A DNA stretch of 64,000 nt. Origin: Candidatus Woesearchaeota archaeon CG10_big_fil_rev_8_21_14_0_10_45_16 (GTDB taxonomy: Archaea; Nanobdellota; Nanobdellia; Woesearchaeales; GW2011-AR9). The stretch lies in the NCBI GenBank assembly GCA_002762785.1, contig PCXY01000003.1, positions 70,463-134,462 on the forward strand. The letters run 5' to 3'. This document shows positions 1-29,579 of this stretch, one piece after another. Position 1 is the first letter of the stretch. Each line of letters opens with the position of its first letter. Position numbers and translations under genes: made by a program. Below the pieces are notes generated by a model that saw nothing but the letters and a program-made list of their open reading frames with translations, did not search any database and was not told the origin of the DNA.

Positions 1-262
1 TAAAGGTACTGACTCAACAATGAGTGTTAGAGTTTTATCATCTGAATCTAAAATTCTATGTGTGTTTATTCCAGCATCATACAATCGTGCTGTAACATCT
101 CTTTCTCGGGAATATCTTTGGTGTGCTCTCATAATTTTTTTTCTCTCTAAAAAAGCCCAAAGAACTGGAAGAGAAAAACCACCATAGGATTTGGTAAATG
201 TACCATTATCTACATTTGTTGAGTTACTACTTACATATTTTCCTAGCCAATCAAGATTCATT
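1..262 (-). CDS. hypothetical protein, 3' part cut by window edge (start codon at 262-260)
   Basis: Open frame on the minus strand from the ATG at 262 to the window start. Not in the ORF track because it is partial. Confidence 0.3.
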
Positions 263-318
263 ATTTAGTTGGGGGAGGCATTTTCATTATAAAGTTTACC
301 TCTATTATTTGCCCGTAG

Positions 319-383
319 TGATTGAGCATAACGATGTTATGCTTCCTTAGGTTTATCCTCAGGTCGAGGCGTAGCCGAGAAGT
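319..383 (+). repeat. composite repeat copy E1 (palindrome CATAACGATGTTATG at 326-340, then hairpin, then a CGTAG motif); candidate attC-like site
   Basis: Exact 15-bp palindrome shared with five other copies. The downstream 7-bp hairpin is degenerate (CCTTAGG tttat CCTCAGG). It is followed by cgtagccgagaag and a T-run. Confidence 0.6.
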
Positions 384-555
384 TTTCAAGTTACCGTGCA
401 TAGTGCGTTGCTGTCAGAAGTCTTTAACACATTTAGTTCAGGCAAAAACAATTAGTGGTTTCATAGTAGTTAGGGGGCTCTCTCGTTTTATCAAAATTAT
501 TAGCAAATTATTTAAATTAGTTCGGTTTTTAGTATGTAAGAGGTATTCAAAGAAA

Positions 556-756
556 ATGGAAACTGACATATTAACCAAGATTCATGAAGATTTAGAGATA
601 TTAAAGCATGATATGGCTGAGATTAAAGAAGTTATCAAACTAGAACCTGAACTACGTGAAGAAGTGATTGAACAAGTTAAAGAAGCCAGAGAACGTATTG
701 TTAAGGGACAATTTGTTAGCAATGAAGATATTCTTAAAGAGTTTGATGTAGAATGA
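556..756 (+). CDS. putative antitoxin, partner of the RelE-like toxin
   Basis: Small acidic ORF whose stop overlaps the toxin start (ATGA). The ORF-track start at 322 would translate through repeat E1, so the internal Met at 556 is the more plausible start. Confidence 0.5.
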   Translation: METDILTKIHEDLEILKHDMAEIKEVIKLEPELREEVIEQVKEARERIVKGQFVSNEDILKEFDVE

Positions 757-1037
757 GCTATGAAGTTATTTGGGATGACAAAGCCCGAAATTTCTTAAGG
801 AAAATTCACAAAGATGATGCTAAAAGAATTGTAAAGAAAGTAAATAGCATTGTTGATGATCCAAGGCATTATCTTGAAACATTAGTTGAGATTAAATCCT
901 ACAAATTAAGAATAGGAGATTTTAGAGCATTAATTGATTTGGATGAAAATAAGCAAACTATTTCTGTCGTGCTGGTTGGACATAGAAAAGATGTTTACAA
1001 ATATGTTCAGAGAAGTGGTTTTAGAAGAAAGAATTGA
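753..1037 (+). CDS. relE: RelE/ParE-family toxin
   Basis: Contains KLRIGDFRALIDLDENKQTISVVLVGHRKDVY, typical of RelE/StbE toxins. Small and translationally coupled to an upstream small ORF. Confidence 0.7.
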   Translation: MSYEVIWDDKARNFLRKIHKDDAKRIVKKVNSIVDDPRHYLETLVEIKSYKLRIGDFRALIDLDENKQTISVVLVGHRKDVYKYVQRSGFRRKN

Positions 1038-1053
1038 TAATTAAAAGAAAAAA

Positions 1054-1416
1054 TTAAAGACTTTGGCGTTGTGTCAATCCTCTTCCTAAATGGTTATAAA
1101 AATTGTGTGAAGCAGATTTTTCTTCTGTTGGATCTGCAACAAGTTCAATACCAAGAGGATTAAAGACTTTTTCTTTCATCTCCCCATCAATTCTTTTGGA
1201 TGAACCAATTGGAACTATCTGATATACTTGTGCAATAACATAAGCTCCAACAACTCCGTCTGTTCCAAAAAGATTGTTGCCATTTTCATCATTATCAGAT
1301 TCATGATATGCTCTGTGGATTGTTTGTAATGTAGCCAATCTTGTTGGATCTTTTCTAATATCATCTAAACAAAATTCAGCTGCTTCTCTTGGTTTTAATT
1401 GTCTAATTTCTGGCAT
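1054..1416 (-). CDS. hypothetical protein
   Basis: 120-aa ORF convergent with the TA pair. No recognisable motif. Confidence 0.4.
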   Translation of the reverse strand: MPEIRQLKPREAAEFCLDDIRKDPTRLATLQTIHRAYHESDNDENGNNLFGTDGVVGAYVIAQVYQIVPIGSSKRIDGEMKEKVFNPLGIELVADPTEEKSASHNFYNHLGRGLTQRQSL

Positions 1417-1620
1417 TTTTTATCCTCCCTATCACCAATTGTGTGAAGATAAGAGCTACTTTAAAAATATTTGTGTTTAAAATGAGAGAGAGCCCCCATT
1501 TCAGTATTTTACATTTACTTTGTTTTTGCCGTTATAGAGTTTTACATTGTTAAAGACAGCAACGCATTAGTTTAGAGAATTTCCTACAGGATTGTTCTCG
1601 TCTAGGTAACTTGAAAATTA

Positions 1621-1676
1621 AGCATAACGATGTTATGTTTCAGGGGGTTTATCCCCCTGCAAGCGTAGCGTAGAGT
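1621..1676 (+). repeat. composite repeat copy E2 (palindrome at 1623-1637; hairpin CAGGGGGtttatCCCCCTG at 1641-1659)
   Basis: Same architecture and orientation as E1 and E3-E6, followed by caagcgtagcgtagag and a T-run. Confidence 0.65.
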
Positions 1677-1775
1677 TTTTAGATTTGAGAACAAAGATTA
1701 ATCACGAACAGAGTGAGACAAGACTTTAGGAAAAAAGCCCTAAGTTATTTAAAGTAGTTAGAGAAATGATATGTT

Positions 1776-2486
1776 ATGGTTGATAAATTATTGGCGAGAG
1801 CAACAAGTCCCACACAGTATGATTTAGATGATATCTCATGGAGTACTGAAAATGGTCTCCAATCTCCTACAAGAAAATTCTTTTTTGATTATTTATTAGG
1901 ATTTAAGGAGGAGTGGAGAGATTCTGATATTTTAGATATTGGTTGTGGGACAGGTTGGTTAATGCATTTGTTAAAGGAGAATGGAGCAAAATCTGTTGAG
2001 GGAATAGAACCATCTCATAAAAATGTTGCATATGCAGGTGATAATGGATTTGAAATTTATCATTGCGATTTAGATTCTTTTTCAGAAGATAAGAGATATG
2101 ATTTATTAATTTCCGTTATGACTTTTGGACACATAAATAATATTGATTCTTCTTTTGAGAAGATGGCAAGATTAGTTAGAGATGGGGGTGGTGTCCAGTT
2201 AATTGTTCCTGCATATGATTATTTTAAAAGAGAAAGAGATGGTTGTAAGGTTGAATTTGAAGAATTAAATCCAGAGGAATATGTTGTTCAAGTAACTCGT
2301 GAGCAAGGAACAATTGCTGAAATTGTGAGAAAAGTGGAGTTTTATGAACGTGCCGCTGAACGAGTTGGTTTAACAGTTGAAGATTCTATTCCGATGGTTC
2401 CAACAGATTCATTGATGAGAGATTCTCCGAGACATGCAACATTTAAAGGTCAGCCAATAACATATCTAGTGAGACTGCGAAAATAG
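1776..2486 (+). CDS. class I SAM-dependent methyltransferase
   Basis: Motif I LDIGCGTGWL and the overall Rossmann methyltransferase pattern. Confidence 0.7.
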   Translation: MVDKLLARATSPTQYDLDDISWSTENGLQSPTRKFFFDYLLGFKEEWRDSDILDIGCGTGWLMHLLKENGAKSVEGIEPSHKNVAYAGDNGFEIYHCDLDSFSEDKRYDLLISVMTFGHINNIDSSFEKMARLVRDGGGVQLIVPAYDYFKRERDGCKVEFEELNPEEYVVQVTREQGTIAEIVRKVEFYERAAERVGLTVEDSIPMVPTDSLMRDSPRHATFKGQPITYLVRLRK

Positions 2487-2519
2487 GGCTTTTTTCTACT
2501 TTCTCAAATCTAAAAATTA

Positions 2520-2583
2520 AACATAACGATGTTATGCTTCGGGAGGTTCACCCTCCCGCAAGGAAACGGAGTTTGAGCGAGTG
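2520..2583 (+). repeat. composite repeat copy E3 (palindrome at 2522-2536; hairpin CGGGAGGttcacCCTCCCG at 2541-2559)
   Basis: Same 15-bp palindrome. The hairpin stem differs from E2/E5/E6 but stays fully complementary, which is a compensatory change. Confidence 0.65.
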
Positions 2584-2690
2584 TTGAAAACCAGCCGTTA
2601 GGCTGTAAATGGTTTTTCTCGCTCATTCCCGGTTTCCGCAGAGTCTGACCTTGAAATTTTGGACATATTGGCTTTTCCTTGAAATAATTC

Positions 2691-2782
2691 CCACCACTGA
2701 CGCTGGTGAGCCGGGGGATGCCCCCTCCGGGGTGGCGAACGAGGACTCACGAAGGGAGTCCGACAGCCGTCAGTAGTGGTGG
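2691..2782 (+). other. GC-rich structured element (candidate small ncRNA) in an ORF-less interval between repeats E3 and E4
   Basis: The outer inverted repeat CCACCACTGACG / CGTCAGTAGTGGTGG encloses two internal hairpins, GGGGGatgCCCCC and GGACTCacgaagggGAGTCC. The surroundings are AT-rich and no ORF of 60 aa or more is present. Confidence 0.35.
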
Positions 2783-2830
2783 ACGCATAATTATTTGATG
2801 GAAAATAACCAAAATTTAATGGTCATATTA

Positions 2831-2888
2831 AGCATAACGATGTTATGTCCCCCAGACTTTACGTCTGGGTGCGAACGTAGTGAGCAAG
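2831..2888 (+). repeat. composite repeat copy E4 (palindrome at 2833-2847; hairpin CCCAGACtttacGTCTGGG at 2851-2869; cgaacgtagtgagcaag)
   Basis: Same palindrome. Third independent stem sequence, same 7-bp-stem plus 5-nt TT-loop geometry. Confidence 0.65.
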
Positions 2889-2958
2889 TATTTTCCAACC
2901 GTGCAGAGAACTAGCGCCATATTTCCTAATCACTTGTAGTTAAAGGGGACAATTTTTT

Positions 2959-3963
2959 TTAGTGCTTGACTATTTCTAATTTTGCTTTTTTATTTTTGGC
3001 AAGAAGTTTGGCAGTTCCACCAATAGGAAATGTAATCATTGGATTAGTATGGCCAAAATCAACATTAGCAATAACAGGTAAGTGGTTTAATTCTTTTTTT
3101 GTTTTGATTATTTTTGTAAGTAATTCTTTAGTCATCTTTGTGGCTTTTTGAAATCTTCCTATTACTATTCCCTGCACTTTTTTAAATTCTGGTTGATGGA
3201 TGATTGATTGGATATCTCTGTCAATAGTGGCGACATGTGCTTCATAATCGTCTTCTAAGAAAAGAATACTACCCTTGATATTTGGTATGTATTCAGTTCC
3301 ATGAAGTAATTGAAGAGTGCATAAATTCCCTCCAATTATTTTTCCAGAAGCTTCGCCCTCATTAATTATCCAGAAACCATCGTTTTTCATAAATTCACGA
3401 TTTTCCTGATCATTTGCCCAGAGATCATCACTCCATTCTTTAGAAGGCAAGACTTCAAATGATTCATCAGAAAATAAGCATTTTTTGAAATAGTCTAATG
3501 AATAGTCAAATCCTCTCTTTTCCCCAAATGAGAAAAAGTGCAGACCAGAATATGTTACTAACCCTGTTTTTGCATAGATTGCATTTGCAAGAGCAGTAAT
3601 ATCTGAATAGCCACAAAGTATTTTAGGATTATTTTTGATTAAGTCATAATCTAAATATCGTAAAAGTTGATTAGAATTAAACCCGCCAATTACCGTTATG
3701 ATTAATTTTATTGATTTATCTTTAAACGCTTCATGGAGGTCATCTACTCGTTTTTTAATTGTTGAGGAATTGAATTCATCTATTTCGTTTACGTGTTCCG
3801 AAAAACTGACTTTAAGTCCTAATTCTTCTAAGCGTTTAATGGCTATTTTTTGTAATTCTTCATTAAGCCAGGGCATAGCCAAACTTCTTGCTGGTGTTAT
3901 TATACGAACGCCATCGCCAGATTTTAACTTTGCTGGAATCATACTTGTTAATGAACGTAGCAA
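2959..3963 (-). CDS. LD-carboxypeptidase (peptidase S66, LdcA/MccF-like)
   Basis: CGYSDITAL matches the GYSD serine motif of S66 peptidases, and the length of about 330 aa fits. Confidence 0.75.
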   Translation of the reverse strand: MLRSLTSMIPAKLKSGDGVRIITPARSLAMPWLNEELQKIAIKRLEELGLKVSFSEHVNEIDEFNSSTIKKRVDDLHEAFKDKSIKLIITVIGGFNSNQLLRYLDYDLIKNNPKILCGYSDITALANAIYAKTGLVTYSGLHFFSFGEKRGFDYSLDYFKKCLFSDESFEVLPSKEWSDDLWANDQENREFMKNDGFWIINEGEASGKIIGGNLCTLQLLHGTEYIPNIKGSILFLEDDYEAHVATIDRDIQSIIHQPEFKKVQGIVIGRFQKATKMTKELLTKIIKTKKELNHLPVIANVDFGHTNPMITFPIGGTAKLLAKNKKAKLEIVKH

Positions 3964-4097
3964 ATATATAAAATGTGCGGTAAAAATAGAGATTTAGAAA
4001 TTGTCCCCTACATTTGGTTTTACATTGTGATTAAGGCGCTAGTTTAGATTGTTAAAGTTAGCGTAAGCGTAGAATTGTTCTAGGTTGGAAAATATTG

Positions 4098-4158
4098 GAC
4101 ATAACGATGTTATGTTTCAGGGGGTTTATCCCCCTGCAAGACACGTAGTGTCGCAGAG
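4098..4158 (+). repeat. composite repeat copy E5 (palindrome at 4100-4114; hairpin at 4118-4136; acacgtagtgtcgcagag)
   Basis: Identical 19-nt hairpin to E2 and E6. The 3' mini-hairpin is GACACgtaGTGTC. An orphan GTAGTG-CATAAC half-site lies at 4187-4201. Confidence 0.65.
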
Positions 4159-4201
4159 GTTTTTGTTGTTGTATCAACCAGTTTAACGCTGTAGTGCATA
4201 A

Positions 4202-5077
4202 CTAATAATCTACGTGAACATGACCGTTTGATGCTATAATGTAACCAGCATATCTAATGAGAACTGCTTTAATATCTACATTTAATTCATGGAAGAGGTA
4301 ACTTCCGATTGTATTTTCATGGCTGAAATAAATGTTGATTGTTTTTTCTGATAAAGCACTCATTAGATTTCTTATTTCATTAGAAGTAGCTTCAGATAAG
4401 GGAGATTCTGTAATCCATTTTCTGAAATGTTCACGTAAAATTCTCAACTTTCTCCTATTTAGTGGGCTCCCATCTTCTAGTGTTTCTTTTAGTTCTGGAT
4501 ACCTCTCTTTCATATCTTTAATTTTTGAACCGCTTCCAGATAATGAACTGTTTTGTCTTGGTCGTGTTAAACGAGCATTAGAGTTTCTTGATAAATAAGA
4601 ATAAGAAAGATCAGCAAACAATCTTGTTCTTTTGCTGTCTGAATTATAGAAATTTACAGTTACATTATCATAAGCTTCCAAAAATTGTTTGAGAAATTTA
4701 TTAAATCTCCAAACTTGAATCATTCCTCTCATAGTTAAATTTTTTCCAGGAAGTTTCCGATAAGATGCCATTAATGGCTCAGGATGACGAACTAAAATAT
4801 TTACACCAGAAGAATTAAAAATTTTAATTTCATTTGTTAATTTTTGATAAGTTTCTTTCGTTGTTGATTCTTGACAATTTTTGATTATATTCAACAATGA
4901 GTTTTTCTGCTCCGATGAGAGATGTTTCTCAAATTTTTTGTAATAACCTAAAAGAAACTTCTCTAAACTTTTCATTCCAGCTTCAATAATTTTGATATCT
5001 TTCTCTTTATGAGAATTATTTAAGAGTTTTCTTCCTGAAGATTTCGTCAACGCAAGGAATGAACTAATATTCATCAT
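4202..5077 (-). CDS. hypothetical protein (weak sulfotransferase-like features)
   Basis: 291-aa ORF. The VRHPEP..SY stretch is faintly sulfotransferase-like and is not relied on. Confidence 0.35.
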   Translation of the reverse strand: MMNISSFLALTKSSGRKLLNNSHKEKDIKIIEAGMKSLEKFLLGYYKKFEKHLSSEQKNSLLNIIKNCQESTTKETYQKLTNEIKIFNSSGVNILVRHPEPLMASYRKLPGKNLTMRGMIQVWRFNKFLKQFLEAYDNVTVNFYNSDSKRTRLFADLSYSYLSRNSNARLTRPRQNSSLSGSGSKIKDMKERYPELKETLEDGSPLNRRKLRILREHFRKWITESPLSEATSNEIRNLMSALSEKTINIYFSHENTIGSYLFHELNVDIKAVLIRYAGYIIASNGHVHVDY

Positions 5078-5112
5078 AAGCTTTAAATAGATCTTATTTT
5101 CTTATAAAACTT

Positions 5113-5673
5113 ATGTTAATTGTTATAGCTGGATTAATTGGAGCAGGAAAATCAACAATTGCTAGAGAACTTTCTAAAAAACTTTCTAAAAAACTTTCTA
5201 AAAAACTTTCTATTCCATTATATAGTATAGATGATGACAAAAAGAGAGTTTACAAGACTCACCCTCAATATGAACATTTCTTGAAGAATCACATCCCATT
5301 TCCGGATGAGACTAGAAAAAAAACTTTTGATGCTTCATTGAAGGGTCTTAGAAAGTTAGCAGAAGAGCATAAACATGCAATTGTTGAAGAAACATTTCAT
5401 AAAAAAATTTTAAGAGATCCATTTTTTGAAGAGGCTAAGAAAATTTTCGGGGGAATGATTTTGATTCTTGCAAAAGTAGATGATAAATTAGTGAAAGAGA
5501 GGTTAGATAAGAGAGAGAAAGATGAAGACCATATGGTTGGATATGGGATGTATCTATCATTTAAGAAACAGTGGGAGCCATTTGAGAAAGTTGATTATGA
5601 ATTTGTTAATGAAGGAAATTTTGATGAAAATATGAATCAGTTGGTGAATTTCCTGAGAGATAAGTTAGATTAG
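5113..5673 (+). CDS. P-loop NTPase, putative nucleotide/nucleoside kinase (AAA_33-like)
   Basis: Walker A GLIGAGKST at the N-terminus. Contains a [12 protein letters not shown] repeat encoded by a 12-bp tandem repeat at 5176-5215. Confidence 0.55.
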   Translation: MLIVIAGLIGAGKSTIARELSKKLSKKLSKKLSIPLYSIDDDKKRVYKTHPQYEHFLKNHIPFPDETRKKTFDASLKGLRKLAEEHKHAIVEETFHKKILRDPFFEEAKKIFGGMILILAKVDDKLVKERLDKREKDEDHMVGYGMYLSFKKQWEPFEKVDYEFVNEGNFDENMNQLVNFLRDKLD

Positions 5674-5750
5674 TTATTTCTTTATGCACGGAAGCGTTAG
5701 GTTTGGGATTTAGCGTTAGCGTAGAATCCATTTACAACAACAAAAACTTA

Positions 5751-5809
5751 AACATAACGATGTTATGCCTCAGGGGGTTTATCCCCCTGCAAGCACGTAG
5801 TGCGCAGAG
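5751..5809 (+). repeat. composite repeat copy E6 (palindrome at 5753-5767; hairpin at 5771-5789; caagcacgtagtgcgcagag)
   Basis: Same architecture. The 3' mini-hairpin is GCACgtaGTGC. Confidence 0.65.
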
Positions 5810-5955
5810 TTGGATTCTCACGTTTTTAGAGGGGGGCGTCAGTTATGACATTAGTTAGTTTTTAGAAAGGGGTCGCCAAATAAAATTTTTGTTACTTGTA
5901 AGTAAATTACAGAAACATTTAAATATTTGCATAGATTTCTTTTATAATACAATGA

Positions 5956-7041
5956 TTGGCAAAGAACGTCAGGAAAGGGATTATATTCCTAATTGGTCAA
6001 GATTATTCTAGCTATAGCTTTAAAGATTTAAGATATGCATCTTCTAATGAAAATTTACAGGACATCTATAATAGAGTTGAAGGCATAAAAGGAAATGGCT
6101 TGTTTGTAATTGGTGGATTTGATCAAGTTGCTTCTTTGTTAGGACATTCCGAACTAGATTTAGCACATTTAGTTGATAACAATCTTACTGCTGTTGAATA
6201 TGCTAGATTCCGCTTAGCACTGACACAAATTTGTGATACTAGATTTGAATATGTTGGTCGACTGATATCACGGAGAGTAAAAGGAATTTTTAATAATATC
6301 TCTTCTTTGAGAAATTTTTATTCTTCTAGAGAGACAGCAAGTGTTAGATTGTTCAACTTTTATAGAACACTATATGATGAACGCCTTACAAGGCTAAGAA
6401 AATTACTTGATTTAAGTCTGTGTTCTGATACAATAGAAGAAAAAATGCTTTATTTTGGGCAATTTAGGATGGAATTTGAAAAAGAAGCAGGGAATATAAG
6501 GGGTATAGAATGGAGAAGAGAATCTCTGGAAGAAGATTTCTGTAGATATGAACAATTTTTAGAAGAAAGAGAAATCGCTTATGATTCTCTGTTTGCTGAA
6601 GAAACAGCTAAATTGCTTTGTGAAAATTTTGGAATTAGTAAAAATCTACTAGAAGAAACAATCTTGAGCGAATATTTTGAAAGTAAATTGAACTGGGGTG
6701 AAAATGATATGGTCGCTGGAAGGAGATTTTGGAGTTTTATTGAATCTAATAAGGACCATTGGCTTTCATCAGACGCCTATTTCGAGAGAGTAAAATCAAT
6801 GTACAGAGAAGAAAGAATTAAATTTTCTCAGCTAGACTTGACCAATGAAGATATCTCGCTTAATCTTTTTGGAGATTTGTCTTTAGTTTATTTATCTAAT
6901 ATTCATGAATGGGTAAAAGTTGAATTAGGAGAACTAATTAAATGTTTATGTTTAAATGAGTTAGGTGTTAATGAACACACAATTTTTCTTTACACAACAA
7001 CAAAAGGAAAGGGTAAATGTAAAATGGCGACCCCGTTATAG
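5956..7041 (+). CDS. hypothetical protein
   Basis: 361-aa ORF. A TATA-like element (cttttataata) sits about 10 bp upstream of the ATG, consistent with an archaeal leaderless transcript. Confidence 0.45.
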   Translation: MAKNVRKGIIFLIGQDYSSYSFKDLRYASSNENLQDIYNRVEGIKGNGLFVIGGFDQVASLLGHSELDLAHLVDNNLTAVEYARFRLALTQICDTRFEYVGRLISRRVKGIFNNISSLRNFYSSRETASVRLFNFYRTLYDERLTRLRKLLDLSLCSDTIEEKMLYFGQFRMEFEKEAGNIRGIEWRRESLEEDFCRYEQFLEEREIAYDSLFAEETAKLLCENFGISKNLLEETILSEYFESKLNWGENDMVAGRRFWSFIESNKDHWLSSDAYFERVKSMYREERIKFSQLDLTNEDISLNLFGDLSLVYLSNIHEWVKVELGELIKCLCLNELGVNEHTIFLYTTTKGKGKCKMATPL

Positions 7042-7123
7042 TTTTAGTTTTTATCTTCTCATAGAGAAGCGTTTTATACATAGCCCCACTCGTTTTTTTT
7101 AGTTTACGTGAGAATCCAATTAG

Positions 7124-7217
7124 GCATAACTCTTTATATGCTGAAATGGGCTGTAATGGGGGAATTTTGGGGATACAAGGGCTGTCCTGAAGCCCATAAA
7201 ACAATAAAGAGTTATGT
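7124..7217 (+). repeat. attC-like long imperfect hairpin E7 (gCATAAC-TCTTTAT ... ATAAAGA-GTTATGt)
   Basis: The 13-bp terminal inverted repeat CATAACTCTTTAT / ATAAAGAGTTATG starts with R''-like GCATAAC and ends with R'-like GTTATGT. An inner stem ATGGGCT/AGCCCAT is separated from it by unpaired bases, as in folded attC sites. Confidence 0.55.
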
Positions 7218-7417
7218 GCCACTATAACCATCATAGTAAGAAATGACTTAGAATGACCTAGAATGTCCTGAAAAAATCTAAATTCACTTTCTAAATTCAC
7301 CTAAAAAAACTTAACCACTTAACATCTTAACAACTTAAACTGACCTGAAATAACATCGATGGACGTATCAGCTTCAACATGGCTGATCTATGATCCCTCT
7401 GCACTGGTCAGCTTCTA
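7218..7417 (+). promoter_or_regulatory. attI-like / promoter region upstream of the recombinase gene, rich in short direct repeats
   Basis: TTAAC repeats with 8-bp period (four copies, 7311-7340). CTAAATTCAC occurs twice (7278-7300). TAGAATG occurs twice (7248-7266). The region sits between the last attC-like site and the recombinase start. Confidence 0.35.
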
Positions 7418-8446
7418 TTGTCCAGTGTGAGAGCGCTTCTACCTGCGAAATTTGGCAGGTTCAGCGGTTGGAGGATGAGCACTGGACACACTGGTCAGGT
7501 CCGGGTAAGATATATAAATCATAAAAGTCATGATAATGACATGGATATTAACATGGATGTTGCTGGCCTTATCACAAAAGAGGGATGGCGTCTGGGAAGA
7601 AGCCCCAGGACTATCAAGACCTACATCTACGTTGTAGAGAAATTCTTAAGGACGTATCATAAAGAGCCGCATCAGGTTACCAAACGGGACATTGAGAACC
7701 ATCTTCTTCGGCTGCAAGAAAGGAACAGCTCAGGCAATACGATGAATGTCCATCTCAACGCTCTTAAGTTCTTTTATGAAAGGGTCCTTAAGAAAAAGCT
7801 GACGGTCAATATCGAGTTTGCTAAAGTGCGGAAGAGTTTGCCCACGGTCTTGAGCAAAGAAGAGACTTCTGCCTTGTTTTCTGCCATCTCTAACCCTAAA
7901 CAGCAGTTGATGGTCAAGCTGCTCTATGCCAGCGGGATGCGGGTCAGTGAACTTGCTTCCTTGCGTGTGCGTGATCTTGAATTCAACAATAACTATGGAT
8001 GGGTCAGGAACGGCAAAGGTGGTAAGGATAGATTATTCATTATCGCCAAAAAGTTGAAGAACGAGATCCTGGCCAGGATATCTCAAAACAAACTGCATTC
8101 TGCTGACTGGCTATTTCCTGGGTATAACAGCAACCACATCAGCCCCAGTTCCATCCGCACTATCATCAAGACCGCTTCCCTGAAAGCTGGTATCAGCAAA
8201 AATGTTCATCCCCACACTTTGCGCCACTCTTTCGCCACCCATCTGATCGAAAATGGCTACGCGGTGACGGAAGTGCAGCCTCTCCTTGGCCATGGTTCGA
8301 TCAACACGACCATGATCTATCTTCATATCGCATCACCACAATTGTTAAAAGTAGAAAGTCCTCTTGATTCGTTAGGGACAGCAGCGAGAGAAGTAAGAAT
8401 AGTAAAGACGGTGGGGGTACGATCTGATCCTCTGGATGCTGCCTGA
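7418..8446 (+). CDS. tyrosine site-specific recombinase, integron-integrase-like (XerC/XerD/IntI family)
   Basis: Conserved blocks match IntI closely: LLYASGMRVSELASLRVRDL, GKGGKDR, HPHTLRHSFATHL, LLGHGSINTTMIYLHI and a C-terminal SPLDSL. The true start may be Met42 or Met46, at 7541 or 7553. Confidence 0.8.
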   Translation: MSSVRALLPAKFGRFSGWRMSTGHTGQVRVRYINHKSHDNDMDINMDVAGLITKEGWRLGRSPRTIKTYIYVVEKFLRTYHKEPHQVTKRDIENHLLRLQERNSSGNTMNVHLNALKFFYERVLKKKLTVNIEFAKVRKSLPTVLSKEETSALFSAISNPKQQLMVKLLYASGMRVSELASLRVRDLEFNNNYGWVRNGKGGKDRLFIIAKKLKNEILARISQNKLHSADWLFPGYNSNHISPSSIRTIIKTASLKAGISKNVHPHTLRHSFATHLIENGYAVTEVQPLLGHGSINTTMIYLHIASPQLLKVESPLDSLGTAAREVRIVKTVGVRSDPLDAA

Positions 8447-11658: not shown

Positions 11659-12339
11659 ATGGAAACTGAAACCAGAGGGGCTATTGCTGATGCGCGTCAT
11701 ATCGTGGCTAATCCGCGAGTCAGTTCAGATGGAAGAAAGAACGATCCCGTCGATTTCCTGATCGGCTGTCAACATCTAGAACAGAGACACCGGCTTTATG
11801 TAGTTAGGGCTGATGGTCTTTACGCTCCTAGAAGTGAAACTCTCAAAAGTGAAGCTCCCAAAAGTATTCTCCTGGTAGGTCACATCGGCGCTGGAAAATC
11901 AACTTTAGCAGCTGCCCTAGTAGCTCAGGCTGCTCAGGGAAGCCTTTCTTACTTTTTAGGTTCAGGTGGAGCAGAGTCAGAATTCGGCCTGATGCACATC
12001 GGGTCTGAAGCCAGGGTTTTCCCTCTTGTTGAGACACCTGAAAATTGGAGATTTTACGGAGCAGGTGCAACTGTTGCTGATATTGTTCGCGTGAAGAGAG
12101 AAGGTTCCGGTCCTGTTCTGATGGAAGAAAAAGTAGACCCTCAAAGGTTGGTAGGTTACTTGGGAGCTGATCTATACGACAGAGATGAAAGTCCAGAAAA
12201 TCCGCAGCGGCTCGATGCCATCCAAAGCCTGTTAGTGGGGCCGTTGTTGGAAGGAAAGCTGCGTTATCATTCTCTCAGAAATGTCACCGGAAAGCTGGAT
12301 GAGGCGGTTTCTCTTCTCACCGGCTGTTTTTTCCAATAG
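11659..12339 (+). CDS. P-loop NTPase, function unknown
   Basis: Walker A LLVGHIGAGKST. No other recognisable motif. Confidence 0.35.
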   Translation: METETRGAIADARHIVANPRVSSDGRKNDPVDFLIGCQHLEQRHRLYVVRADGLYAPRSETLKSEAPKSILLVGHIGAGKSTLAAALVAQAAQGSLSYFLGSGGAESEFGLMHIGSEARVFPLVETPENWRFYGAGATVADIVRVKREGSGPVLMEEKVDPQRLVGYLGADLYDRDESPENPQRLDAIQSLLVGPLLEGKLRYHSLRNVTGKLDEAVSLLTGCFFQ

Positions 12340-12375
12340 GAAACTTTATAAATGATGCTCTAGTTTTAGGAGCAA

Positions 12376-12564
12376 ATGGAGCAACAGCAGGAAGTAAAGC
12401 CCAGCAAGACCAGGCGGTTTTTAAAGGAAACGAAAAGAGTGCTTCATATCACCAAGAAGCCAAACCGCACTGAATTCCTAAGCCTGAGTAAGATCACTGG
12501 CTTGGGTGTAGCGATCATCGGCGCCATCGGTTTTGTCATCTTCCTGATCAAACAATTTATCTAA
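12376..12564 (+). CDS. secE: preprotein translocase subunit SecE / Sec61-gamma
   Basis: 62-aa protein with a basic N-terminus and a single C-terminal TM helix, immediately upstream of spt5. Confidence 0.55.
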   Translation: MEQQQEVKPSKTRRFLKETKRVLHITKKPNRTEFLSLSKITGLGVAIIGAIGFVIFLIKQFI

Positions 12565-12565
12565 A

Positions 12566-13030
12566 ATGGCTGAAACACATATCTTTGGATTACGCACGGC
12601 AGCTAACCGGGAAGACCAGGTTGTTGACTATCTTATCTCTAAGCTGAAGAAAAGCCCGAAAGGTATCTTCTCTGTGATCAGGCCGCACGGTATGCGCGGC
12701 TATATCTTCGTGGAAGCCGTCTCCAAAGCTGATGCAGAATCTACTCTTCAAGGGGTTCCTTATGCCCGCGGTCTTTTGCCTTCTGAGATCCCTTACCCGG
12801 AGATTGAACACATGCTGGAGCAGGTCAAGGTTGAGATGAATGTCCATAAGAACGATATCGTGGAGATTATCTCTGGTCCGTTCAAACGGGAGAATGCCAA
12901 AGTCATGCGTATCAACAAGCAGAAGGAAGAGATTGTTGTCGAACTGCTTGAGTCTGCTGTTCCGATCCCGATCACTGTTAAGATGGATGCCGTCAAGGTT
13001 ATCCGTCGTGAAGGCGAAAGCGAAGATTGA
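12566..13030 (+). CDS. spt5: transcription elongation factor Spt5 (NusG homolog)
   Basis: NGN domain plus a KOW motif (GDIVEIISGPFKRENAKVMRI). Conserved secE-spt5 adjacency. Confidence 0.8.
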   Translation: MAETHIFGLRTAANREDQVVDYLISKLKKSPKGIFSVIRPHGMRGYIFVEAVSKADAESTLQGVPYARGLLPSEIPYPEIEHMLEQVKVEMNVHKNDIVEIISGPFKRENAKVMRINKQKEEIVVELLESAVPIPITVKMDAVKVIRREGESED

Positions 13031-13115
13031 GCTTTGCTTTAAGTGCAGACTTTTAGGAATAGATACCTTTTTAAACTTATATTTCTTCTCTTCTCTTTAA
13101 AGAGGTGATGTACTG

Positions 13116-13364
13116 ATGATGTGCAGTAGCAGTGGAATGTGTATAAAATGCAAGGGTGTCATGAAACTTATCACTGGCGCTCTTCTTCTGCTGAACGCTT
13201 TCGTATGGCCGTTATGGCTGGGCGTAGACGGCTGGGTATCGTTCGTTGCAGCACTCATGGTTCTAGGCGGATTAGTGAAGTTGTTCGTGCCGAACGGCTG
13301 TCCGCATTGCAGAGCTATGAGTTCCGGTTCGATGATGCCAGCTTCTGGTAAGAAGAAAAGGTAA
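13116..13364 (+). CDS. small membrane protein with CxxC and CPHC motifs
   Basis: 82 aa with a hydrophobic core, preceded by a strong SD-like AAAGAGGTGAT. Confidence 0.35.
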   Translation: MMCSSSGMCIKCKGVMKLITGALLLLNAFVWPLWLGVDGWVSFVAALMVLGGLVKLFVPNGCPHCRAMSSGSMMPASGKKKR

Positions 13365-13599
13365 ATTTTTCTTTTTTTTATTTAATATTATTTCTTGTTG
13401 TTTCTTTAGGATCGGTGCGGCGGTTTGTCCATTGCTCAGGGATTAGCTACATAGTCATCAATTTGGGCTATTATTACGATTATTATTACGATTATTTTGA
13501 GGAATAATATCAAAGATCAATATTAGCTAATTGACAAGATAATGACGCCTACGGCGTTTTATAGCAATCTTTTTATAATAGGGATGAAGAAGCCTTCCC

Positions 13600-13830
13600 G
13601 TGCCAGCGTCGCTTAATCCGGTGGCGTCCAAGCAGCAGCTTACGCCGGAGAATATAGCGTCGGTCTCGAACAAGTGTCACGCCACTTGAGAGGCGGGGCG
13701 ACATACGCTTCGCTTAGTCACCGTGAAACATTTTATCGAGTTAACCGATCCCTCTGGGATTCCCGGTTCAAAACAGATGTCGCATCAAGAAATTGTGGAT
13801 CGATGAAAGTCCGGGCGCTGGCGCTTTTTC
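13600..13830 (+). ncRNA. candidate structured ncRNA of about 230 nt. Type unresolved. Contains the RNase P CR-I-like 12-mer GAAAGTCCGGGC.
   Basis: A TATA box TTTTATAA at 13571-13578 puts the transcription start near 13600. The 5' GCCAGCG (13602-13608) pairs with the 3' CGCTGGC (13817-13823), followed by an oligo-T tract at 13824-13830. Several internal GC-rich hairpins. Confidence 0.4.
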
Positions 13831-13910
13831 TTTACTGTAAAAAGCCAGAAAGCTCAGCACACAAAGAAACGCAATGGCCTTTCTTGTACCCCCGAAATCA
13901 ACGTGATCTC

Positions 13911-14912
13911 TCAGGGCTTTTTTCTAACGATATGATCCGTAATTTCAGTTGAGAATGTGATCGGATAATCGACTTGGCATCTTTCTAATATACCATTTAA
14001 TTCGTCGATTCCAATGTCGCCGGTCACTTCCAAAGTTCGTTGCCTCTTATGATGTCCGTTTTTTCCATTAACTTTTACGCTTACACCAGAAGAGTCAGTT
14101 CTTCTTCCATGTCCGCGGACTCTTTTAGCCATTGCTTGTAACATCCCAACATCTACTCCTTTTTGAGATTCCACAGTAACGGTATACATACGTCTTTGTT
14201 GAAGAGCTTCTTCTAGGGCCTGAGCTGAATTTAAAACTTTTGAAGTTAAATATTGATGAAAGATAGCTTCGCACTGGTGGGGAGCATCAATTCTGCTTCC
14301 AAGATTTACCCTTGCTTCTAACGCTTTTCGAAGGAGAGAAGCGTATAATTCTCTTTCGTTTACTGGAATGATTGCGGGTGGATAGGCTGCTTGTTCTAAT
14401 GTAAAATTCTGTAGTAATCTAGCTGCTCTTCCATTACCGTCAGTATAAGGATGAATGTGGGCTAATCTAGCATGTGCCTCAATAGAACGTAGTACTGGAT
14501 GTATATCGGCGCGCTGTAGGGTATAAGCAAGACTATCCATCTCATAGATTATTCTTTCAGGCGCTGAGGGAGGAACGGTCCCGATCGTGACTTCGATATT
14601 TCTGTAATTGGCGGTAGGGTTATTTGCTGGTTCTATCAGATGTCCCAAAGATGCCAGAGAGGCTGTAGTGATTCCGCTTCGAGCTAGATGATCCCAAGCT
14701 CTTTCGATATTAGTTCCAAATTGCCTATCTCGTTTAGAATAAGATGATTGGCAACCAGTAGCTTCAGATTCGTCTTCTATAGCGATCGAATGACGGATTG
14801 CATCACGTCGGATGGCTCCTAATGTCTCTTTCCTGACATATAATGAATATTCTGGATGAGCGTTAATACGTCTAAGAGTAATATCTAGTCTCTCTAAAGT
14901 TTTTTGGGACAT
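13911..14912 (-). CDS. Fic/DOC family protein (putative AMPylase)
   Basis: HPYTDGNGRAARLL matches the Fic motif HPFx[DE]GNGR. Confidence 0.8.
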   Translation of the reverse strand: MSQKTLERLDITLRRINAHPEYSLYVRKETLGAIRRDAIRHSIAIEDESEATGCQSSYSKRDRQFGTNIERAWDHLARSGITTASLASLGHLIEPANNPTANYRNIEVTIGTVPPSAPERIIYEMDSLAYTLQRADIHPVLRSIEAHARLAHIHPYTDGNGRAARLLQNFTLEQAAYPPAIIPVNERELYASLLRKALEARVNLGSRIDAPHQCEAIFHQYLTSKVLNSAQALEEALQQRRMYTVTVESQKGVDVGMLQAMAKRVRGHGRRTDSSGVSVKVNGKNGHHKRQRTLEVTGDIGIDELNGILERCQVDYPITFSTEITDHIVRKKP

Positions 14913-29340: not shown

Positions 29341-29441
29341 GTGGGGGTAGCAAAGCCTGGTCAAATGCGCAGGACTTAAGACAACTTTGAAAGATATCCT
29401 GTCCTTTAGTAGGTTCGAGGGTTCAAATCCCTTCCCCCACA
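29341..29441 (+). tRNA. tRNA-Leu (anticodon UAA) with a 15-nt intron after position 37
   Basis: Acceptor stem GTGGGGG/CCCCCAC. Anticodon stem CAGGA/TCCTG. Loop is CTTAAG, then the intron, then A. Long variable arm. T-arm GAGGG-TTCAAAT-CCCTT. A TATA box lies upstream. Confidence 0.8.
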
Positions 29442-29493: not shown

Positions 29494-29579
29494 GCCCCTG
29501 TGGCCTAGCGGTATGGCGTTACCTTGGTATACATCATACAAAGAGGTAAAGGTCCCGAGTTCAAGTCTCGGCAGGGGCT
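29494..29579 (+). tRNA. tRNA-Thr (anticodon GGU) with a 14-nt intron after position 37
   Basis: Acceptor stem GCCCCTG/CAGGGGC. Anticodon stem TTACC/GGTAA. Loop is TTGGTA, then the intron, then A. T-arm CCGAG-TTCAAGT-CTCGG. Confidence 0.8.

Follow-up and report, generated by a model that had tools for sequence, protein, structure and literature searches.

Cassette arrays are usually seen as libraries of protein genes, and their gene-less cassettes, which are common, are almost never explained. Integron cassettes that lack an open reading frame (ORF) have been described in Vibrio, Xanthomonas and oral Treponema, where they are presumed to carry a promoter, a small RNA or some other noncoding element (PMC6557892; PMC8876359). 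The DUF1874 motif, a multi-stem motif found in cassette-like gene arrays, left its authors undecided between an RNA and an unusual attC-like site acting as single-stranded DNA (ssDNA) (Weinberg et al. 2017; PMC5737381). Here, we analyze a 92-nt GC-rich structured element that is the sole cargo of an ORF-less cassette in a 64,000-nt stretch of DNA from Candidatus Woesearchaeota archaeon CG10_big_fil_rev_8_21_14_0_10_45_16 (contig PCXY01000003.1, positions 70,463 to 134,462 of the forward strand; hereinafter, the window). This copy is a clear member of a conserved, strand-biased, noncoding and patchily distributed family of structured elements; the structural family is new, whereas the object that carries it, the ORF-less cassette, is of a known kind.

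Among the described systems, the ORF-less integron cassette is the closest concept, given that the cassette analyzed here is similarly short, contains no ORF and is bounded by recombination sites. Unlike those cassettes, it carries a defined, conserved GC-rich three-way junction that is found in several arrays, its host is an archaeon, and the recombinase is of the XerA type rather than IntI. The DUF1874 motif, likewise a multi-stem nucleic acid motif in cassette-like arrays, is the closest precedent for the dilemma between RNA and ssDNA. That motif, however, recurs in consecutive intergenic regions, whereas the element is rare, with at most one copy per array, lies beside a true repeat and does not match the Rfam model of the motif.

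Repetitive extragenic palindromic sequences (REPs) and bacterial interspersed mosaic elements (BIMEs) are GC-rich, intergenic and patchily distributed between co-oriented genes; they are thought to form RNA stem-loops at transcript ends and to be mobilized as single-stranded hairpins. The element resembles them in composition, intergenic location, patchiness and placement between co-oriented genes. REPs, however, are simple hairpins of ~35 nt that are present in hundreds of copies per genome and are served by a dedicated RAYT transposase, whereas the element is 92 to 150 nt long and branched, has conserved junction bases and occurs once in 64 kb. With folded attC sites, which are bottom-strand hairpins, the element shares a strand-specific fold with two short helical boxes, an asymmetric unpaired stretch, an extrahelical base and a variable terminal structure; it differs from them in lacking the AAC/GTT core, in not being repeated along the array and in the conservation of bases within the “variable” part. 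Finally, attC-targeting elements, namely, group IIC-attC introns and IS1111-attC elements, lie directly beside the attC hairpin, are always oriented antisense to the cassettes and cause no duplication of the target. In all these respects the element is similar, adjoining an attC-type site; however, the attC-targeting elements span ~0.6 to 2 kb and possess ribozyme domains or a transposase gene, whereas the 92- to 150-nt element has neither and yields no Rfam intron match.

The GC-rich element and its structural relatives

The element (Table 1) has a G+C content of 68%, compared with ~33% in the surrounding array DNA and ~44% in the remainder of the 64-kb window; on the scale of 100 nt, G+C reaches 0.62 at positions 2701 to 2800 versus ~0.28 to 0.40 over most of the array. 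In the minimum free energy (MFE) fold, a 12-bp outer stem with a 3-nt bulge closes a three-way junction. Thus, the GC-rich segment in AT-rich DNA and the bulged outer stem that had been proposed in the first-pass annotation, made from the letters of the window alone, are both confirmed, as is, with comparative data in addition, the compact multi-stem fold proposed there. Of the two inner hairpins in that proposal, GGACTC/GAGTCC is present in the MFE fold. The other, GGGGG-atg-CCCCC, can form but has less support and probably the wrong register: the MFE fold pairs the G- and C-runs as CCGGGGG with CCUCCGG, and the comparative data favor CCCC/GGGG pairing inside the P2 branch, between the C-run and the second G-run, with pairing of the first G-run and the C-run as the alternative.

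The plus-strand fold has an energy of -46.0 kcal/mol (z = -2.34 relative to dinucleotide shuffles, 6 of 200 of which were equally good), and the minus-strand fold has an energy of -44.3 kcal/mol (z = -2.20, likewise with dinucleotide shuffles). Because these energies are only modestly beyond those of the shuffles, the fold alone is not decisive, and the deciding support comes from relatives of the element elsewhere.

The related arrays that were searched for such relatives amount to 518 kb and were collected with a degenerate pattern for the array repeat, which matched more than 116 metagenome stretches (L004 to L119). A covariance model built from the window sequence alone (R1) gave weak, full-length matches in these arrays, at L022 4023 to 4171 (23.7 bits, E = 0.003 to 0.015) and in L047 and L103 (17.5 bits each). 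With the filters off, R1 misses the L022 copy owing to a 64-nt insertion there, which shows that single-sequence models are fragile. Variants of the L022 type were found in L064 and L073, and variants of the L047 type in L163 and L138. The relatives comprise five further distinct sequences, representing two further types, all in arrays of Woesearchaeota-type archaea. A model built from L022, L064 and L047 only, that is, leaving out the window sequence (R3), had a sole match on both strands of the 64 kb, namely, the element itself, recovered at full length on the plus strand with 39.3 bits (E ~3e-6).

All members share a terminal helix of 6 to 7 bp, followed by a bulge of 1 to 4 nt on the 3′ arm, a second rod helix of 6 bp (CUGACG/CGUCAG in the window, CUGACG/CGUCGG or UGUCGG in the L022 type) and a third of 3 to 6 bp. 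The single bulged C and the 1- to 4-nt bulge on the 3′ arm of the rod are present in all six sequences. All members further possess a short P2 around a G-run/C-run/G-run, the stretch UG.CGRR..UAGGRC and a P3 hairpin that opens with GGRC. In an alignment of the six distinct sequences (A7), 96.2% of the 210 cells are paired and both sides have changed in 20 of the 38 pairs, values that none of 500 shuffles equaled; when the partners were slid, pairing fell to 30 to 48%. Rod helices 1 and 2 are 92 to 100% paired, with changes on both sides in 12 of 18 pairs, and P3 shows a compensatory change from G-C to U-A between types C and D. The comparison of homologous cassettes that the first-pass annotation had suggested thus reveals a conserved structure, both in the covariation of A7 and in the R3 match.

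A four-sequence model (R2) detected no further members in the related arrays (572 kb) or in the surroundings of recombinase genes (135 kb), and it had no match in a negative control of 152 kb of unrelated viral loci sharing a motif 15-mer (18 loci, all chance). The expression UG.CGRR..UAGGRC retrieved, in 580 kb, only the family members from which it had been derived. Near-identical copies were seen only in two other assemblies of the same population (one ENA contig and one JGI contig), where the element is identical, so that it is not an assembly artifact. The 64-kb window, together with the 8.2 kb of array DNA past its left end, holds a single copy. A 19-mer of the element had a single match among 185,579 genomes, by chance, in a Limisphaerales bacterium with unrelated flanks, and none in viral contigs; blastn against plasmids and phages returned only chance matches outside the element. 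A 20-mer had no match in the JGI metagenomes, a weak negative given that the carrier contig Ga0210050_1041503 (L003) was also not found there.

The distribution of the family is sparse. Three types were found among ~224 repeat copies, with at most one element per array and always on the same strand relative to the repeats. The rod starts 3 to 12 nt past the GTTAKG box of an attC-like site in three types (A, B and C) and 88 nt past it in the window. In the relatives, the element is located between co-oriented genes, just past the attC-like site. Across the family, the left-hand neighbor is encoded on the plus strand in five of five cases (chance, ~5%). Downstream lies a ParE/RelE-like toxin gene, one of two unrelated genes of unknown kind or, in the window, no gene, so that the element is not linked to any one gene family. 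Among toxin cassettes that are 90 to 99% identical, the element is present in L047, L103, L139, L138 and L163, the site is “empty” in L159 to L162, and L140 retains an apparent decayed remnant. Comparison with the “empty” toxin-cassette alleles shows that, in type C, a 21-nt piece with a GTTAKG-type box (TCGTAGTCCTCGTTATGTTT) was inserted together with the rod.

Two loci, L138 (at 3300 to 3858) and L163 (at its start), have an IS200/IS605-type insertion whose position coincides exactly with the 5′ boundary of the GC-rich element. The L138 copy encodes a Y1 transposase and has similar end hairpins at 3315 to 3343 and 3816 to 3844. Because an insertion sequence with end hairpins of its own abuts the first base of the rod in both loci, this base constitutes a real boundary. 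The possibility that the GC-rich element is a part of the insertion sequence was rejected, given these paired end hairpins and the stop at the rod boundary. The family does not conform to miniature inverted-repeat transposable elements either: the termini differ between types (CCACCAC, GTTGCCC and GCGCCAC), no consistent target duplication was found at the element junctions, and the window and the adjoining array DNA hold one copy rather than several.

RNA, single-stranded DNA and other explanations

The 92-nt segment is probably a member of a small, uncatalogued family of GC-rich structured elements that occur sporadically in the arrays of AT-rich DPANN archaea of the Woesearchaeota/Nanoarchaeota type. 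We assign a probability of roughly 45% to the reading of the element as a structured RNA module that is novel and has spread horizontally. The conserved unpaired junction bases, the conserved internal helices, the high G+C content in AT-rich archaeal DNA and the absence of any likeness to the recombination core favor RNA; in particular, the conservation of unpaired bases and of bulge positions (UG.CGRR..UAGGRC and the single bulged C) would not be needed in plain inverted repeats. Furthermore, several G-U pairs form on the plus strand where the opposite strand would have A-C, and for L022, the predicted RNA fold is more stable on the plus strand (-62.8 kcal/mol) than on the minus strand (-41.9 kcal/mol). 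The working form would be an RNA made from the plus strand of the window, antisense to the canonical direction of the array. Such an RNA would fold into a long rod of three stacked helices, with the 1- to 4-nt bulge and the bulged C on its 3′ arm, capped by a three-way junction composed of the G-run/C-run/G-run branch, the purine-rich junction and a second hairpin of variable length. By analogy with REPs and BIMEs, this self-contained module might most likely serve as a stable protein-binding or transcript-end/processing structure, and it may move horizontally along with the adjacent end of the recombination site.

Several points weigh against an RNA. The ssDNA folds prefer the plus strand by merely 1 to 3 kcal/mol, inspection of the element ends by eye revealed neither a conserved archaeal promoter nor an oligo-T terminator, and the sequence upstream of the element in L138 and L163 is the unrelated insertion sequence. 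The apparently decayed copy in L140 indicates that the element is not under strong selection everywhere. The sample consists of six distinct sequences from three lineages; A7 was aligned by hand with the structure in mind, which inflates the pair statistics; and the alignment behind R2 and R3 carried one extra C in the L047 row, which is not included in the A7 pair counts. Finally, the arms of the rod are also inverted repeats, and inverted repeats coevolving at the DNA level would mimic the compensatory pattern.

The main alternative, which we consider less likely than an RNA, is that the structure works as ssDNA. It could be a folded structure for recombination, accessory or alternative to the attC-like site that it adjoins, or the folded end of a small nonautonomous mobile element that inserts beside sites of this kind. 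The proximity of the rod to the GTTAKG core-like box on the same strand in types A, B and C, together with the co-insertion of the box-bearing 21-nt piece in type C, fits this explanation; in the window, however, the rod is 88 nt away from the box. The layout loosely resembles that of attC, with a 6- to 7-bp box, an asymmetric bulge, a 6-bp box, an extrahelical base on the 3′ arm and a variable terminal structure, and the strand that folds is complementary to the one read in the canonical cassette direction and would thus be the recombinogenic “bottom” strand. Nevertheless, the rod does not contain the CATAAC/GTTATG (AAC/GTT) core that is found in every array repeat, and conserved unpaired junction bases deep in the “variable terminal structure” would be unexpected for a hairpin recombination site. 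Mobility is suggested by the coming and going of the element among nearly identical toxin cassettes; yet neither a target-site duplication nor conserved terminal bases recur across the types, and no transposase is consistently found nearby, the IS200/IS605 copy of L138 and L163 merely abutting the rod.

That the element has no function of its own, being either a decaying fragment of GC-rich DNA from a foreign source or a palindrome that arose by chance in a dead cassette, appears improbable. The single copy in the window, the rarity of the three types among the repeats, the z value of only about -2.3 and the loss in L140 could all be so explained, but not readily the maintenance of the same architecture by compensatory changes in three diverged lineages, the recognition of the window copy by a model (R3) that was built without it or a G+C content of 55 to 68% in members whose host arrays are at ~33%. 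Considerably less probable still is a known class of RNA that was merely missed, such as a self-cleaving ribozyme, a tRNA-like RNA, a riboswitch, an archaeal C/D or H/ACA guide or a group II intron fragment, even though the compact multi-stem fold and the mobile-element context would suit one, and group IIC-attC introns and IS1111-attC elements adjoin attC sites. A scan of the whole window with the 4227 models of Rfam 15 yielded nothing for the element at the gathering score, and relaxing the limit to E ≤ 10 for the three types added only chance-level matches to the isrN and sraL small RNAs, far below threshold; ARAGORN found no tRNA in the element. By eye, the element contains no CUGANGA/GAAA hammerhead core and no HDV-like, C/D, H/ACA or bulge-helix-bulge features; nor does it have K-turn G-A pairs after the bulge, a GUGYG intron start or other group II features. 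Given the lack of Rfam matches, the element is not a known ribozyme, tRNA-like RNA or riboswitch, and the models of self-cleaving ribozymes and tRNA-like RNAs that the first-pass annotation had suggested running, all of which Rfam covers, gave no match. Least plausible of all, to the point of being nearly negligible, is a short protein. Open frames do span the element, the longest being those at 2609 to 2776 (+; 55 amino acids [aa]) and 2598 to 2750 (-; 50 aa), but neither is credible, and no ORF of at least 60 aa lies between repeats E3 and E4, so the cassette was correctly recognized as ORF-less at the outset. A chimeric query made of six open frames from the three types had no match among 5.8 billion proteins, and close variants are separated by 1-nt and 14-nt indels that shift every reading frame; together, the indels and the lack of a protein match to any frame indicate that the element is noncoding. 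In addition, gene callers placed no gene here in two other assemblies, and the candidate start codons are inside stems, without a ribosome-binding site.

A more specific role in the expression of the neighboring toxin gene, as a leader or an RNA antitoxin, was also examined and rejected. The element is absent upstream of toxin homologs at 90 to 91% identity, at lower identities and of one identical copy; in the other types, the downstream genes are unrelated, and the window copy has no downstream gene. A TATA-like box predicted between the element and the toxin start codon likewise argues against a leader of the toxin mRNA.

The noncoding cargo described here has a defined fold that is kept by compensatory change across several archaeal arrays and is absent from RNA catalogs. 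If the element is an RNA, cassettes can trade structured RNAs among tiny symbiotic archaea without any protein gene; a DNA structure would instead hint at an unrecognized step in the movement of the arrays or of elements that parasitize them. We tentatively entertain the broader possibility of a new class of structured nucleic acid carried as cargo by a Xer-type, integron-like platform of DPANN archaea, which could be either a functional RNA (regulatory, protein-sequestering or catalytic) or a second folded ssDNA site for mobility; the mutually exclusive G-run/C-run/G-run pairings in P2 would then constitute a switch.

The cassette array and its XerA-type recombinase

The repeat array occupies positions 1 to 7200 of the window and continues for at least 8 kb past its left end, where the adjoining stretch L002 contains 12 repeat copies. 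The window contains six copies of the palindrome CATAACGATGTTATG (at 327, 1623, 2522, 2833, 4100 and 5753), whereas each of 100 shuffles has fewer. Each repeat consists of the invariant 15-nt palindrome, a 7-bp hairpin that covaries between copies (stems include CAGGGGG/CCCCCTG, CGGGAGG/CCTCCCG and CCCAGAC/GTCTGGG, with a TTTAT-like loop) and a small CGTAG hairpin. The palindrome (CATAAC-GAT-GTTATG), together with a distal GTTAGGC-like box 75 to 100 nt away, provides boxes of the AAC/GTT type. When folded as ssDNA, the repeats are predicted to form three local hairpins rather than pairing R″ with R′ into one long attC-type hairpin. The imperfect palindrome H1 (Table 1), which is specific to repeat copy E3, has an ssDNA fold of -19.1 kcal/mol (z = -5.8 with mononucleotide shuffles).

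Table 1. Coordinates of the element, its substructures and the surrounding array features in the window
Feature	Position	Strand	Remarks
GC-rich structured element (rod and three-way junction)	2691-2782	+	From the fold; the R3 model from other loci matches the same ends
Rod, 5′ arm	2691-2705	+	P1 2691-2696; P1b 2697-2702 (CUGACG); P1c 2703-2705
Rod, 3′ arm	2764-2782	+	P1c 2764-2766; bulged C 2767; P1b 2768-2773; bulge UAG 2774-2776; P1 2777-2782
P2 branch	2710-2736	+	2710-2713 paired with 2733-2736; encloses G-run 2714-2717, C-run 2722-2725 and G-run 2729-2732
Conserved motif UG.CGRR(N0-2)[U/G]AGGRC	2733-2746	+	3′ strand of P2, junction GAACGA and start of P3
Purine-rich junction GAACGA	2737-2742	+	Between the 3′ strand of P2 and the start of P3
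P3 hairpin	2743-2761	+	GGACUC-ACGAAGG-GAGUCC; apex of 4, 7, 18 or ~58 nt in relatives
Possible A/T extension of the rod	2681-2798	+	AAATAATT (2681-2688) pairs with AATTATTT (2791-2798) in the extended fold; not conserved in relatives
ORF-less cassette, 311 nt	2527-2837	-	Bounded by the crossover points inferred within the palindromes of E3 and E4; repeat spacing, 311 nt
Repeat E3, attC-like site of the ORF-less cassette	2513-2603		Palindrome 2522-2536; covarying 7-bp hairpin 2540-2558; distal core-like box GTTAGGC 2597-2603
H1, 76-nt imperfect palindrome centered on the GTTAGGC box	2562-2637		Right arm is an inverted partial copy of the distal part of E3
Repeat E4, start of the next attC-like site	2824-2874		Palindrome 2833-2847
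Array repeat copies	318-368, 1614-1664, 2513-2563, 2824-2874, 4091-4141, 5744-5794
Recombinase-proximal terminal (attI-like) site	7123-7219		GGCATAAC, then TCTTTAT...ATAAAGA, then GTTATGTGC
XerA-type tyrosine recombinase, array end	7418-8446	+

The canonical direction of the cassettes was taken to be the minus strand of the window. A methyltransferase cassette is duplicated within the array (L002 5884 to 6802 versus window 1616 to 2534, 93% identity), and the homology between the two copies stops inside the flanking palindromes. At the other end of the array, the differing last cassettes of L170, L171 and L172 join one identical sequence just past a shared ATAAC (CATAAC|TCCC), ~270 nt upstream of the recombinase start codon. 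Together, these observations place the crossover at CATAAC|, inside the palindrome, which delimits the ORF-less cassette. The terminal site of the window has the form CATAAC-(inverted repeat)-GTTATG, as do those of L170, L171 and L172, and is located ~200 to 300 nt upstream of the recombinase gene.

The best match of the recombinase in the PDB is the Pyrococcus abyssi XerA. The array recombinase scores 235.5 bits against the archaeal XerA model NF040815 (cutoff, 220) and 216 bits, in two stretches, against the integron integrase model TIGR02249 (cutoff, 265). The alignment with VchIntIA (2a3v) is split, with 14 query residues (225 to 238) opposite 55 IntI4 residues (185 to 239). Judged from these alignments, it is XerA-like and does not contain the IntI-specific additional domain around patch III. 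Homologs are located at the same end of the array and in the same orientation in 11 further loci (L061, L116, L048, L031, L076, L065, L164 to L167 and L171). Many contigs break just upstream of the recombinase gene.

The first-pass annotation had likened the cassette to those of integron arrays. The layout of an integron platform, with a recombinase, an attI-like site and an array with a fixed crossover, is indeed present in the window and in related loci, but the IntI-specific domain is not, and neither is a uniform ORF orientation: of 85 inter-repeat intervals in related arrays, 48 have their longest ORF on the plus strand and 37 on the minus strand, unlike in classical integrons. Given the XerA-type recombinase and the mixed orientation, “integron cassette” applies here by analogy only. 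The case thus draws attention to what seems, in Woesearchaeota-type archaea, to be an integron-like platform whose recombinase is of the Xer type; a search of a collection of papers returned no description of such a platform.

The other cassettes in the window contain unrelated genes, including those for a ParE toxin, a methyltransferase, an LD-carboxypeptidase and a kinase. The ParE/RelE-like toxin gene of L047 (337 to 932) and ~30 related loci (L138 to L163), which encodes 105 to 107 aa, always precedes a conserved 45-aa ORF, often with an ORF of 30 to 57 aa in between; no antitoxin gene was found upstream of the toxin in these loci, and the locus may be a toxin-first module. The kinase-like gene contains a 12-nt tandem repeat (5154 to 5213) encoding KKLS repeats. 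The ENA assembly of the same population is 99.8% identical to the window apart from one 12-nt gap, which presumably lies in this tandem repeat.

The gene that follows the recombinase encodes an archaeal Nre protein, and homologs of the recombinase and of a cassette toxin are annotated as Nanoarchaeota or Candidatus Woesearchaeota. The contig L004, which has one array repeat, contains an archaeal 23S rRNA gene (11915 to 13976) interrupted by a group I intron (Rfam, 77.7 bits). In the window itself, Rfam identifies two tRNA genes, at 29341 to 29441 (101 nt) and 29494 to 29579 (86 nt), both of which ARAGORN in bacterial mode misses and which are probably intron-containing archaeal tRNAs.

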